Positions 39,050-45,744 of a stretch of 64,000 bases of DNA are shown here, piece by piece. The DNA is taken from positions 32,001 to 96,000 of the forward strand of contig CALKCF010000002.1 in the NCBI GenBank assembly GCA_938083505.1, given 5' to 3'. Numbering within the stretch: the stretch's first letter is position 1; the number at the start of each line of letters is the position of its first letter. The translations under genes and the position numbers were made by a program. The notes below the pieces were generated by a model. That model saw nothing but the letters and a program-made list of their open reading frames with translations. It was not told where the DNA came from and ran no database searches. Source of the DNA: an uncultured archaeon. GTDB taxonomy: Archaea > Thermoproteota > Nitrososphaeria_A > Caldarchaeales > Wolframiiraptoraceae.

Positions 39050-40576
39050 TTGATGAAATTTGAAGTAATTTCGACGAATTTAGAAGGTGTAAGGGTTGAT
39101 TCTCTCATTATTCAATTCTTTGAGGGTGCTGAGGTTCCAGAAGCTGTGGTTACGCTACCCGAGAGTATCAAAGAGGAGATAGAGCCCTCGATTGGGACAG
39201 GCGGCTTCAAGGCCAAGCTCGGTCAGGTGCTTCCAGTGTATCCAAAATCTGCGGACGCCATCCGCTGCTTTCTGCTATTAGGCCTGGGAAGTAGGAAAGA
39301 TTTCAGCCTAGAGGCTGTAAGGCAGGCTCACGGTTATGCGGCCATAAGAGCCAAGGAGATAGGCAGTAAGAGCATAACGGTGCCCATATTCAGCATACCT
39401 CCCTACACCGCTCCCGAGATAACTGCCAGCGTTGTCGAGGCAATAAACCTGGCTTTTTACAGGTTTGACAGGTACAAGTCAAAGGTCGAGGATGGTAAAT
39501 ATCCGGAGCTTGTCAGACTCGTGGCAGATCCGGACGTAAGGAATATGTGTGATGCAGCGGCCAATGAGGCCGCCATAGTCTCGGAGGCCGTAAAGCTTGC
39601 GAGGGACTTAACCAACATGCCAAGTAGTGATATACCGCCAAAAAAGATGGCGGAGATAGCGACCGAGGTCGGAATGGTAAGCGGTTTCTCTACAAAGGTC
39701 TTAGAGGCAGAGGTGCTTGAAAGAATGGGAATGGGAGGCATAGTGAACGTCGGGAAAGGTAGCTCCAACCCGCCGGTCTTGATAATCATGAAGTACGACG
39801 GTGGCGGCGATACTTATGTGGTCGTAGGGAAAGGTGTGGTGTTCGATAGCGGAGGTATATCCCTAAAGCCGTCGGAGAAGATGGAGGAGATGAAGTATGA
39901 CAAAGCGGGCGCAGCCGCAGTCATCGCACTCATGAAGGCGGTAGCGGAACTTAAGCTTCCCGTAAGGCTAATAGGTATAGTGCCCGCCGTCGAAAACCTG
40001 CCAAGTAGCAACGCACTTAAGCCCGGCGATATAATAAGATTCAGAAACGGAAAGACTGCGGAGATTATAAGCACGGATGCGGAGGGTAGGTTGATACTTG
40101 CGGACGCTCTTGCCTACGCATCCGAGATGCGACCAAAGGTCATAGTAGACTTGGCAACACTGACCGGTGCCTGCGTTATAGCCCTCGGAACGCATGCAAG
40201 TGGCTTATTCAGCAACAACGACGAGCTAGCTGAGGCGCTTATAAAGGCAGGAGAAAAGACTGGAGAGAGACTTTGGAGACTTCCGCTCTGGAAGGATTAC
40301 TTCGAGCAGATAAAGAGCGATGTGGCTGATATGAAGAACGTCGGCGGTAGAGCCGCAGGCGCGATAACCGCGGCAGCCTTCCTGATGAACTTTGTAGAGG
40401 GGAACATACCTTGGGCCCATATAGACATAGCTGGGACTGCATGGACCCAAGAATCGTCGCCAGAGAAGAGCTACATACCGAAAGGTGCTACAGGCGTTGG
40501 TGTTAGATTACTCGTCGAATTCCTGAAGTCGGAGATTAAACGAGTTAAGCCTTACCCATCGGATGCCAACACTTAA
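39050..40576 (+). CDS. pepA: Leucyl aminopeptidase (M17)
   Basis: VGKGVVFDSGG, MKYDKAG, STDAEGRL, DLATLTGA, WAHIDIAG. Confidence 0.95.
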   Translation: MMKFEVISTNLEGVRVDSLIIQFFEGAEVPEAVVTLPESIKEEIEPSIGTGGFKAKLGQVLPVYPKSADAIRCFLLLGLGSRKDFSLEAVRQAHGYAAIRAKEIGSKSITVPIFSIPPYTAPEITASVVEAINLAFYRFDRYKSKVEDGKYPELVRLVADPDVRNMCDAAANEAAIVSEAVKLARDLTNMPSSDIPPKKMAEIATEVGMVSGFSTKVLEAEVLERMGMGGIVNVGKGSSNPPVLIIMKYDGGGDTYVVVGKGVVFDSGGISLKPSEKMEEMKYDKAGAAAVIALMKAVAELKLPVRLIGIVPAVENLPSSNALKPGDIIRFRNGKTAEIISTDAEGRLILADALAYASEMRPKVIVDLATLTGACVIALGTHASGLFSNNDELAEALIKAGEKTGERLWRLPLWKDYFEQIKSDVADMKNVGGRAAGAITAAAFLMNFVEGNIPWAHIDIAGTAWTQESSPEKSYIPKGATGVGVRLLVEFLKSEIKRVKPYPSDANT

Positions 40577-40636: not shown

Positions 40637-43402
40637 GTGTTTGTAGGTGGACTGAGGTTGCATAGGGTCGCGGTCATAGATTACGATTTCTGTCAGCCAA
40701 CCAAGTGCGGCCAGCCCTGCATATCATTCTGCCCGCCCGTGAGGAATAAGATAGAGGCCATCAAGCTCGGTGAGAAGGGATTTCCAGTAATTAACGAAGT
40801 GCTGTGTATTGGGTGCGGTATATGCCTCGACCCGAACACACCAGTGGTAACAGAGGCTGGTTTGAAGCCCATTAGAGAGGTTAAGGTAGGCGACAAAGTA
40901 CTCACACATAAAGGAAGGTTTAGGACTGTTCTCTCAAAAAGCGTCAGGCTGTATACCGGCCCCCTCTACAGAATAGAGGTACATGGTATACCGGACCCGA
41001 TACTGCTAACCGAGGATCATCCTTTACTCGTCGCTTCAAAGAACCAAGAAGCGGATGATTTTACGTTTGCCTGGAAAACCCCGCCCGAACTGAAAGAAGG
41101 CGATTACCTTTGTGCTCCAATAGTTACAAACGAAGGTTGTTTAGGGCAGCAAGAACAGCTCACTATCACTACCTCAGGAGTGCTAGCCCAATCGTTATCC
41201 TTTGAATTGACGTTCAAGCTCGGTATAATATTCGGTTATTACCTTGCCAGGGGGTCTGTAGAGCGTGAAAAAGTCGTATTTAGATTCGAAAGGGAGGGTA
41301 TGGTTAAAAAGGCAGAGGAGCTTCTAGAGAAATGCTTCGGTGTGAAAGTCATCCAGAAAGGCCCCAGATCGTTCTTTGTAAACTCGGAGCCTTTAGCCAA
41401 TCTGTTCCGCAACATTCTCGGAGGCTCGGAAGATTCTAAGAGGATACCAATGAGCTTCCTATCCGCATCCTTAGACTTCTTAAAAGGTTTCATCTTAGGA
41501 TTCATAGAGGCTGGGGATAATCGTACGAGTCCTTACATTTCCATGAATAATGCATACATCTTAAAGTTGATGGGAGCAAGGCTTAGCTTACCGTTATCAA
41601 TAAAAAAGGTCGCAAATGCTTATGCAATCTCACTCAGCGATAGGGGGAATGTATCATCAGGAGGTTACCAACTAAACATAATAAACTCAGTGAAGGTTGA
41701 GTTTGTGAAAGATTACCTAGTAATAAACTTAGAAGTCGAAGATGACGAGACATACAACGCCGTAGGGCTTATAGTTCATAACTGTGTTAAGAAGTGCCCG
41801 TTTGAAGCGATCACGATAGTTAACCTGAGCGAAGAGCTTGGTAGGGACATGGTGCACCAATACGGTGTGAATTCGTTCAGGCTTTACAGGCTTCCATACT
41901 TGGAGAAGGAAAAAGTCATCGGTATAATCGGAAAGAACGGCATAGGTAAGACCACAGCGTTGCAGATACTTGCGGGCCGTATTGTCCCGAACTTAGGCAA
42001 GTTATGCGAGGAGAAATCCCTACATGATGTTGCCAGAATGTTCAGGGGCTCACTTATACAAGATTATTTGACGAAGCTCGCCAGCGGTGATGTAAAAATT
42101 TCATACAAGCCGCAATACATCGACACGATACCAAAAGTCGTTAAAGGTAAAGTTGGCGCAATTTTGTTAAAGATTGGTCCCGAAGAGCGTGTTAACAAGC
42201 TAATAGACATGCTGGAGCTCCGCAACCTATTGGATAGGGATGTTTCTGTACTTAGCGGCGGTGAGCTCCAACGCCTTGCGATAGCGGCTTGCCTTGCAAG
42301 GGATGCTAATGCGTTCATACTAGACGAGCCGACCAGCTTCCTTGATATAAAGCAAAGGTTTAGGATAGCTTCAGTAATCAGGGAGCGCGCGCGGGAGGGC
42401 ATGGCCCTCGTATCTGACCATGACCTCGCGGTTCTTGACTATATATCGGATAAGGTTTTCGTGTTTTACGGCGAGCCAGGGGTATACGGCATCGTCGCAG
42501 GCCCTTATGGTGTTAGGGAGGGCATAAATATATTCATAGAAGGATACATACCTGACGAGAATGTAAGGTTTAGGAGTGAAAGGATATTGTTCCAGCTGAG
42601 GCCTCCAACGGAGGCTTATGAAGAGGGTTACTTAAGGCTCTACTGGCCGAGCATGACAAAAACCTATGATGTCTTTAGGCTGGAGGTCGAAGAGGGCTAT
42701 GCATATCCTGGCGAGGTGATCGGTATAGTGGGTCCAAACGGTATAGGTAAAACAACCTTCATAAAAATATTGGCGGGCATCGAGAAGGCTGATGCGGAGT
42801 TTCAGTTACCTTATAGGACGATAAGTTACAAGCCACAGTATCCAGAGATAAAGGACGAGAAAGTTGAAGTCGTTCTTAAAGAAGCTGCTGGAAGCAAGTT
42901 CAATACCGACCTTTACCAATCAGAGCTGATTAGAGCATTGGGTCTACATAAGATACTTGAAAGGAATGTTAGAGAGCTGAGTGGTGGCGAGCTCCAGAAG
43001 GTTGCAATAGCTGAGGCCCTTTCAAAGGATGCTGAAATTTACCTGATAGACGAACCGAGCGCGTACCTGGACGTCGAAGAAAGGTATACAGTCGCAAAGT
43101 TGCTGAAGAGGATAACACGCGAAAGGCAGGCCCATACATTCCTCGTTGAGCATGACCTTATGGTATTAGACTTTGCATCAAGCAGATTGATGGTTTTCTC
43201 GGGCGAGCCGGGTATCAGCGGACATGCCAGCAAACCCATGGACCTTAGGTCAGGGTTCAACGCTTTTCTAAAAGATATGGGTGTCACATTCAGGAGGGAC
43301 CAACAGACGTTCAGGCCGAGAGCGAACAAGCCCGATTCTAGATTGGACAAACAACAAAAAGCGATCGGTGAGTATTACTATCCAGTACCGACCTCGGAGT
43401 AA
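40637..43402 (+). CDS. rli: Ribosome recycling ABC ATPase ABCE1/Rli1, intein-containing precursor
   Basis: N-terminal Cys-rich 2x[4Fe-4S] domain, two ABC domains (GKNGIGKTT, LSGGELQ, GPNGIGKTT), C-terminal TFRRD...RANK...GEYYY. Start may be TTG 40658. Confidence 0.96.
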   Translation: MFVGGLRLHRVAVIDYDFCQPTKCGQPCISFCPPVRNKIEAIKLGEKGFPVINEVLCIGCGICLDPNTPVVTEAGLKPIREVKVGDKVLTHKGRFRTVLSKSVRLYTGPLYRIEVHGIPDPILLTEDHPLLVASKNQEADDFTFAWKTPPELKEGDYLCAPIVTNEGCLGQQEQLTITTSGVLAQSLSFELTFKLGIIFGYYLARGSVEREKVVFRFEREGMVKKAEELLEKCFGVKVIQKGPRSFFVNSEPLANLFRNILGGSEDSKRIPMSFLSASLDFLKGFILGFIEAGDNRTSPYISMNNAYILKLMGARLSLPLSIKKVANAYAISLSDRGNVSSGGYQLNIINSVKVEFVKDYLVINLEVEDDETYNAVGLIVHNCVKKCPFEAITIVNLSEELGRDMVHQYGVNSFRLYRLPYLEKEKVIGIIGKNGIGKTTALQILAGRIVPNLGKLCEEKSLHDVARMFRGSLIQDYLTKLASGDVKISYKPQYIDTIPKVVKGKVGAILLKIGPEERVNKLIDMLELRNLLDRDVSVLSGGELQRLAIAACLARDANAFILDEPTSFLDIKQRFRIASVIRERAREGMALVSDHDLAVLDYISDKVFVFYGEPGVYGIVAGPYGVREGINIFIEGYIPDENVRFRSERILFQLRPPTEAYEEGYLRLYWPSMTKTYDVFRLEVEEGYAYPGEVIGIVGPNGIGKTTFIKILAGIEKADAEFQLPYRTISYKPQYPEIKDEKVEVVLKEAAGSKFNTDLYQSELIRALGLHKILERNVRELSGGELQKVAIAEALSKDAEIYLIDEPSAYLDVEERYTVAKLLKRITRERQAHTFLVEHDLMVLDFASSRLMVFSGEPGISGHASKPMDLRSGFNAFLKDMGVTFRRDQQTFRPRANKPDSRLDKQQKAIGEYYYPVPTSE
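40823..41782 (+). mobile_element. Intein (320 aa) with a degenerate LAGLIDADG endonuclease domain
   Basis: Block A CLDPNT, block B TEDHPLL, blocks F/G VINLEVEDDETYNAVGLIVHN|C. Excision restores CIGCGICVKKCPF. Confidence 0.96.

Positions 43403-43451: not shown

Positions 43452-45744
<2,293 letters not shown>

Follow-up and report, generated by a model that had tools for sequence, protein, structure and literature searches.

An intein with degenerate endonuclease motifs at an iron-sulfur ligand cysteine of the ribosome-recycling ATPase ABCE1 in Candidatus Terraquivivens

Among described inteins, that of P. abyssi MoaA offers the nearest parallel in cysteine spacing to the element reported here. 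According to the passages that reviews devote to it (Callahan et al. 2011, via PMC3922620 and PMC10663303), it sits in an oxygen-sensitive archaeal host and has a cysteine at position -3 that can form a disulfide with Cys1, which stops the first splicing step until it is reduced; the same passages mention that the Pab and Mma PolII inteins are redox-controlled by way of other cysteines. The window analyzed here, a 64,000-nucleotide stretch of contig CALKCF010000002.1 from a hot-spring archaeon of the genus Candidatus Terraquivivens, contains a 320-residue intein with the same cysteine spacing, inserted in the gene for ABCE1 (RLI) directly before the third cysteine of its second iron-sulfur (Fe-S) motif. 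ABCE1 is a ribosome-recycling ATPase that is essential throughout archaea and eukaryotes, and the order concerned, Caldarchaeales, was formerly known as 'Aigarchaeota'. The likeness to the MoaA intein noted here is one of cysteine spacing, and the hosts differ, being an oxidoreductase in one case and the ferredoxin-type CxxCxxCxxxCP motif of a translation factor in the other. Whereas redox control of the MoaA intein is published, only the spacing is known for the ABCE1 intein.

Three other groups of inteins invite comparison. The M. tuberculosis SufB (Pps1) intein likewise has an essential host in Fe-S metabolism, and published work on it deals with the inhibition of its splicing by toxic metals and ZnO nanoparticles; however, its host is bacterial, its site is outside a ferredoxin-type ligand motif, and it is distantly related in sequence, SufB/SufD inteins being among the moderately distant matches. 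The VMA inteins (PhoVMA 7QST, TliVMA 7QSS/7QSU) and PI-PkoII (2CW7) share a two-domain fold with the ABCE1 intein (E 4e-16 to 1e-13, TMq 0.66-0.71), and the endonuclease domain of the VMA inteins is a profile homolog of its own (1e-18). Nonetheless, identity to these inteins is only 15-19%, their hosts are the A-ATPase P-loop region or DNA polymerase, and in comparison with them the ABCE1 intein has lost both endonuclease acids and has shortened DNA-binding extensions. The nearest relatives outside ABCE1 are inteins of archaeal NuoI, an Fe-S subunit of complex I (L018, P0011 and P0067-P0069 are examples; 29-38% identity, E down to 2e-50), which share the N-terminal signature C(L/I/V)DPxTPV...GDxVLTH but differ in host, in having intact GYYLAEG/GLWLGDG motifs, in often ending in Ser-Asn rather than His-Asn, and in often being accompanied by a second intein upstream.

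We document here the anatomy of the ABCE1 intein, its distribution, its vertical inheritance, the loss of its endonuclease acids and its kinship with NuoI inteins. Because it occurs in one genus only of its order, has a dead endonuclease, exists also as a mini-intein, and has NuoI relatives with intact motifs, we consider it very probable that it is a decayed selfish intein, acquired once by the ancestor of the genus and trapped in an essential Fe-S site. A literature search, with InBase outside its reach, found no paper naming ABCE1/RLI or NuoI as an intein host, in keeping with the first-pass annotation, which had not recognized ABCE1 as one; the same search found nothing relevant on inteins together with Aigarchaeota, or together with ribosome recycling and iron-sulfur. 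As far as this search reached, the ABCE1 site is a new insertion site for a well-known kind of element. Public annotation of these proteins of 910-980 residues reads RLI, or 'LAGLIDADG endonuclease, partial'. To our knowledge, translation factors carry few inteins.

The ABCE1 host gene and its intein

The open reading frame at 40637..43402 (plus strand, 921 residues; Table 1) is identified as RLI/ABCE1 by the NCBIfam equivalog hidden Markov model (HMM) NF009945, with 793.7 bits against a cut-off of 469 and the best stretch at residues 382-915, by an N-terminal domain with eight cysteines, and by two ABC ATPase domains; Pfam recognizes Fer4_RLI (PF04068) at residues 10-37 and two ABC_tran (PF00005) domains. 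The gene is single-copy in its own genome (1.15 Mb, 98.5% complete). Its real start is probably the TTG at 40658, with the listed GTG at 40637 being wrong, because ABCE1 homologs begin M-H-R-V-A-V and AGGTGG precedes the TTG.

The insert comprises ABCE1 residues 63-382 and occupies nucleotides 40823-41782 exactly, splitting CIGCGI|CVKKCP; the extent and position given in the first-pass annotation are correct to the base. Its first residue is Cys and its last two are His-Asn, and a host Cys stands at +1. In neighboring genera (34 related genomes), the empty site reads straight through as CIGCGICVAKCP or CIGCGICAAKCP. The N-extein aligns with the Fe-S domain of the ABCE1 structures 6TMF (chain d) and 3BK7 as far as the position preceding the motif's third Cys, and the +1 Cys is therefore itself a cluster-ligand Cys of CxxCxxCxxxCP, as had been proposed. 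The eight Fe-S cysteines are divided by the insert, six being in the N-extein (C19, C24, C28, C32, C57 and C60) and two after the intein (C383, the +1 residue, and C387). Both Walker A loops (GKNGIGKT and GPNGIGKT) are free of insertion, which also agrees with the first reading of the gene.

We conclude that the insert is a genuine class-1-type intein (Cys1, TxxH, His-Asn, Cys+1) of the LAGLIDADG-associated kind. It is an in-frame insertion with uninterrupted orthologs, it has the junction nucleophiles together with TxxH and His-Asn, and it has a HINT fold in the predicted structure. Cys1, T63-x-x-H66-P, H319-N320 and Cys+1 are unchanged in all 10 insert-bearing ABCE1 proteins (10/10). An AlphaFold2 model of the intein, built from a nine-row alignment, has a pLDDT of 85.6 and a pTM of 0.84 and is poor only in the linker at 105-125; it takes the HINT plus LAGLIDADG fold, and its top Foldseek matches are solved inteins (probability 1.00), the best being PhoVMA 7QST and TliVMA 7QSU/7QSS (E about 1e-15 to 4e-16, TMq 0.68-0.71), followed by PI-PkoII, PI-SceI and PI-PfuI. 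The alignment profile similarly matches the endonuclease domains of the Tli and Pho VMA inteins in the PDB at 1e-18. Curated intein HMMs match only below threshold (PF14890, 22.8-25.8 bits versus 35.8; TIGR01445, 19-21 versus 24.5; PF13403 is also below), and the call thus rests on homologs, predicted structure and junctions.

The splicing blocks had been described as intact, and they are so at Cys1, T63-x-x-H66, H319-N320 and Cys+1; what had been overlooked is block F (V-I-N302-L-E-V-E-D-D-E309-T-Y), where Asn302 stands for the usual Asp and Glu309 for the usual His. Because Asn302 and Glu309 are invariant across both ABCE1 intein clades (see below), and so in all ABCE1 inteins, block F is, judged from the alignment, a conserved variant rather than a sign of decay. 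Actual protein splicing is suggested by the essential, single-copy host and by the strong purifying selection on the exteins.

Table 1. Features of the ABCE1 gene and its intein in the window, and related NuoI genes
Feature	Position	Strand	Basis
N-extein, ABCE1/RLI	40637..40822	+	PF04068; alignment to 6TMF, 3BK7; homolog starts
First Fe-S motif, C19, C24, C28, C32-P	within N-extein 40637..40822	+	sequence
C57 (position -6)	40805-40807	+	first Cys of second Fe-S motif
C60 (position -3)	40814-40816	+	second Cys of second Fe-S motif
Intein N-terminal HINT lobe, residues 1-121	40823..41185	+	invariant residues; model beta-rich, pLDDT above 90
Cys1 codon	40823-40825	+	invariant
Block B, T63-x-x-H66 (T63-E-D-H66)	41009-41020	+	invariant T63, H66, P67
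Degenerate LAGLIDADG domain, intein residues about 122-262	41186..41608	+	alignment of relatives; VMA profile match 1e-18; model
Helix 1, GYYLAR143G (R143 codon 41249-41251)	within 41186..41608	+	alignment
Helix 2, GFIEAG231D (G231 codon 41513-41515)	within 41186..41608	+	alignment
Intein C-terminal HINT lobe, residues 263-320	41609..41782	+	alignment, model
Block F, VINLEVEDDETY (Asn302 codon 41726-41728)	within 41609..41782	+	alignment
Block G end, H319-N320	41777-41782	+	alignment
Cys+1 codon, third Cys of CxxCxxCxxxCP, then VKKCP	41783-41785	+	junction reading
C-extein, ABCE1/RLI, stop codon included	41783..43402	+	NF009945, Pfam; two ABC ATPase domains
NuoI-like intein carriers	P0067, P0068, P0069; L018:641-2776; L019:586-2541		inteins before Cys1 and/or Cys3

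The genes on either side, at 39050-40576 and 43452-44690, appear from motif reading to encode an M17 leucyl aminopeptidase-like protein (..TDAEGRL..) and a phosphoglycerate kinase-like protein, respectively; a functional tie of these two genes to the intein is not apparent.

The endonuclease domain

Alignment of GYYLARG and GFIEAGD in the window with GYYLAEG and GLWLGDG of related inteins indicates that both catalytic acids are gone, being replaced by R143 and G231, which bears out the earlier description of these motifs as dead. The LAGLIDADG helices themselves are present in the model (H131-143 and H217-229), and with both catalytic acids absent the domain is not classed as an active LAGLIDADG endonuclease. 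The first acid position is R, K or N in the six other species of the genus, and their second motif reads EAGG, EAKG, EAGN, SVGK or CAGR, with G or K at the second acid position, whereas the NuoI and Thermoplasmata-like relatives keep E in helix 1 and D in helix 2. From the alignment, about 13 and about 20 residues at the periphery of the endonuclease have also been lost in the ABCE1 clade. In one species of the genus (G002; L007, L024) and in the metagenomic P0007, intein residues about 122-262 are cleanly deleted to give a 180-residue mini-intein, and P0008 and P0070 have a shorter internal deletion in the endonuclease domain with the frame kept. Judged on these sequences, the endonuclease is dead and the element would no longer home.

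Nonsynonymous (dN) and synonymous (dS) divergence was compared by region among seven Terraquivivens ABCE1 genes by the Nei-Gojobori method. Mean dN rises from 0.03 in the N-extein and 0.06 in the C-extein to about 0.19-0.20 for the HINT lobes and 0.30 for the endonuclease domain, which is the fastest region; dS is about 1.1-1.6 in intein and exteins alike. Saturation of synonymous sites (dS 1-2.6, with several values undefined) leaves the order of the regions as the one usable result and makes dN/dS ratios qualitative, including those of the exteins (0.03-0.05), which are under strong purifying selection. There are no stops or frameshifts among the seven intein-bearing gene copies.

Inheritance in Caldarchaeales and kinship with NuoI inteins

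The distribution was surveyed in 41 genomes of the order, seven of the window's genus and 34 from ten other genera of the same family and order. The intein is present in ABCE1 in all seven genomes of the genus (7/7), and the site is empty in all 34 others (34/34), which have a protein of about 595-614 residues. Carriers include Candidatus Terraquivivens yellowstonensis, tengchongensis, tikiterensis and ruidianensis, with the mini-intein form found in an 'uncultured Nitrososphaeria' metagenome-assembled genome (MAG). This genome is not alone in having ABCE1 as host, since the insertion is shared by at least seven Terraquivivens genomes and by Thermoplasmata-like MAGs. Extein and intein trees agree in their supported splits, which are (L005,L006) versus the rest and L002 with L007, and intein dS is not below extein dS, giving no sign of recent homing. 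Taken together, the agreement of the gene trees and the dS values point to one old invasion in the genus followed by vertical descent.

No further inteins were detected in the organism's own genome in searches with the intein as query and with PF14890 and TIGR01445, although the result with these curated models is weak alone because they miss their cut-offs on the ABCE1 intein itself. The NuoI gene of this genome is intein-free. No contig joining the exteins without the intein was found for this organism in metagenome contigs that are probably those of the source sample. The same metagenome contains a contig of 18 kb from another relative that is more abundant, with 83% identity over the N-extein (window 40718-40824), whose ABCE1 runs directly into ...CVAKCPFEAI; an empty target thus co-occurs with the endonuclease-dead intein.

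A second clade of ABCE1 inteins occupies the identical site in Thermoplasmata-like/'Methanobacteriota' MAGs (P0009, P0010, P0012, L025 and L026). These inteins are 371-372 residues long and have intact GYYLAEG and GLWRGDG motifs. With the intein only, lacking extein flanks, as query against 1.84 billion representatives, the best hosts other than ABCE1 are NuoI-type 2x[4Fe-4S] proteins (P0067, P0068 and P0069; E 2e-50 to 8e-38). The NuoI Cys3 intein, at CVFCG(F/L)|C...(H/S)N|CVDACP, immediately precedes Cys3 in the second ferredoxin motif, a site homologous to that in ABCE1, and in many of these proteins another intein (DYGR|C...HN|CVFCG) is located six residues further upstream, ahead of the motif's first Cys. 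Within the order itself, the NuoI Cys3 intein of Candidatus Calditenuis fumarioli (L018) keeps GYYLAEG and GLWLGDG intact, and a NuoI Cys1 intein is present in an 'Aigarchaeota' MAG; the NuoI Cys3 intein is also common among Nitrososphaerales MAGs.

In maximum-likelihood trees, each of the four intein groups, two from ABCE1 and two from NuoI, is monophyletic (support 99 or more), and support for the clade of ABCE1 and NuoI inteins is 95/91. Comparison of the empty site of ABCE1 with that of NuoI gives 25-29 identical positions out of 48 nucleotides, with a common core TGCGGnnTC|TGCGT...TGCCCCTT. This kinship and the shared DNA core make an ectopic jump between ferredoxin motifs plausible; from the sequences, such a jump most likely led to the ABCE1 site, or it may have run the opposite way.

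Several features of these related genes can be noted. Archaeal NuoI has up to two inteins six residues apart within one CVFCGFCVDACP motif, with both, one or neither present per genome, and the Cys1 intein of P0069 is already reduced to a 173-residue mini-intein. NuoI of the organism's own lineage (G000:C8:26381-27205, outside the window) has a non-intein insertion of about 118 residues between its two Fe-S motifs; this insertion is carried by L019 too and is longer in P0068 and L018 than in the own genome. Lastly, two archaeon MAGs (L091 and L094; YP1.bin46 and FK4.bin31) have a related intein that splits a radical-SAM-type motif ahead of its third Cys (SGCNWLCRY|C...SN|CQNYD), where the +1 nucleophile would be another Fe-S ligand Cys and a Cys is again at position -3.

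Persistence of the intein and alternative readings

If the ABCE1 intein is a decayed selfish element, as we think very probable, its history may have run as follows. The ancestor of Candidatus Terraquivivens would have gained the intein once, directly before the third Cys of the ABCE1 CxxCxxCxxxCP motif; loss of the two catalytic acids of the endonuclease, and of the entire domain in one species, would then have ended homing. The intein would persist because only a precise deletion could remove it without destroying an Fe-S ligand in an essential, single-copy gene. The 921-residue precursor would have to splice to unite C57/C60 with C383/C387. In the 2x[4Fe-4S] ferredoxin fold, each cluster is bound by three Cys of one motif and the Cys-Pro Cys of the other; if this ligand pattern holds in ABCE1, both [4Fe-4S] clusters would need a C-extein ligand, and since Cys+1 would also have to stay free to attack the thioester, splicing would be expected to precede cluster insertion. 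Splicing is presumably efficient, because the gene is essential and single-copy, and is presumably constitutive rather than regulated in a reduced cytoplasm. The selfish-remnant reading covers everything seen.

Nonetheless, several points weigh against it. First, the evolution of the former endonuclease domain departs from neutrality (dN/dS about 0.2, with dS saturated), and simple decay explains this incompletely; folding constraint is a likely reason for its conservation. Second, the intein has been kept through dS above 1 after the death of the endonuclease, which is compatible with a benefit too. Third, the Asn/Glu of block F may make the chemistry somewhat atypical, though the residues are invariant in an essential gene. 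Fourth, protein splicing is something that we infer from the sequences rather than observe. Finally, the mutual order of the four intein groups is unsupported in quick and careful trees alike, and a single ABCE1 clade is not rejected (approximately unbiased test, p = 0.42), such that one and two ABCE1 invasions are indistinguishable, and the donor likewise; because of this lack of resolution, we claim no donor or number of invasions.

It is conceivable, if doubtful, that a single intein lineage specialized on the ligand cysteines of ferredoxin motifs (NuoI Cys1, NuoI Cys3 and ABCE1 Cys3) by way of the motif DNA and moved between non-orthologous hosts, with the ABCE1 copy acting as a maturation gate in which a Cys-3/Cys1 disulfide or the capture of a metal would hold back the precursor. 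If this were true, no Fe-S cluster would form before splicing, and ribosome recycling would be tied to a reduced, Fe-S-competent cytoplasm.

A related suggestion, made in the first-pass annotation, is that the intein is retained as a conditional switch, with oxidation or stray metal holding the precursor unspliced and pausing ABCE1 maturation, so that recycling is tied to redox or Fe-S status. The idea is chemically reasonable, and would involve either a disulfide of Cys1 with Cys-3 (or Cys+1) or a metal at the four junction cysteines (-6, -3, 1 and +1), but we consider it unlikely. The proximity of Cys1 to a CxxC that had motivated it is real: C60-G61-I62|C63 has both Cys-3 and Cys1, spaced as they are in the native MoaA intein of P. 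abyssi and in the engineered DnaE redox trap. Reviews also give redox control for two PolII inteins, Pab and Mma (PMC3922620, PMC10663303), Fe-S cluster supply to yeast ABCE1/Rli1 is oxidant-sensitive (PMC8153317), and the intein, long after its endonuclease died, is still present in all species of the genus. However, an insertion at this site brings the geometry with it: Cys-3 and Cys+1 serve as cluster ligands, invariant with or without the intein, and for this reason the spacing provides no independent evidence of selection. Moreover, ten neighboring genera in similar habitats manage without the intein, the nearest NuoI inteins keep their endonuclease motifs intact and are patchily distributed, which fits selfish spread, and the Rli1 clusters have been argued in review to be targets of damage rather than sensors (PMC8153317). 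In vitro, any intein with Cys1 and Cys+1 is likely to be sensitive to oxidants or Zn, and such sensitivity would not on its own be proof of regulation.

The dead LAGLIDADG domain could alternatively have been reused, for example in WhiA-like nucleic-acid binding or in folding of the precursor, which would account for its being kept in six of the seven species; WhiA is a LAGLIDADG-derived DNA binder and is among the Foldseek matches. The dN/dS noted above, an amino acid identity of 57% at dS above 1 in the absence of any stop or frameshift, and a confidently predicted fold (pLDDT near 90 for most of the stretch 131-260) are in favor of such a role. We judge it decidedly unlikely, given that the domain is dispensed with cleanly in G002 (L007, L024) and P0007 and is shortened in P0008 and P0070 with the frame intact, that the constraint may just reflect a need to leave HINT folding undisturbed, and that the ratio, with dS saturated, is qualitative only. 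That the insert is never removed, making the gene a pseudogene or ABCE1 a protein with a permanent insertion domain, is scarcely credible despite the sub-threshold HMM matches and the non-canonical block F, as it would separate the ligand cysteines of an essential, single-copy Fe-S protein whose junction residues are all invariant across two deep clades, whose exteins are strongly constrained, and whose insert has a fold matching solved inteins.

With the ABCE1 insertion taken, as we prefer, to be a trapped and decaying selfish intein, the site provides a natural precursor in which the splice nucleophiles lie inside a four-Cys Fe-S motif, and the intein should be a handy thermophilic model for the effects of redox, metals or Fe-S assembly on splicing. 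Inteins are known to cluster at P-loops, and the kinship between the ABCE1 and NuoI inteins presents a comparable pattern, being a clean case of an intein family that tracks a short cofactor-binding motif across unrelated hosts.

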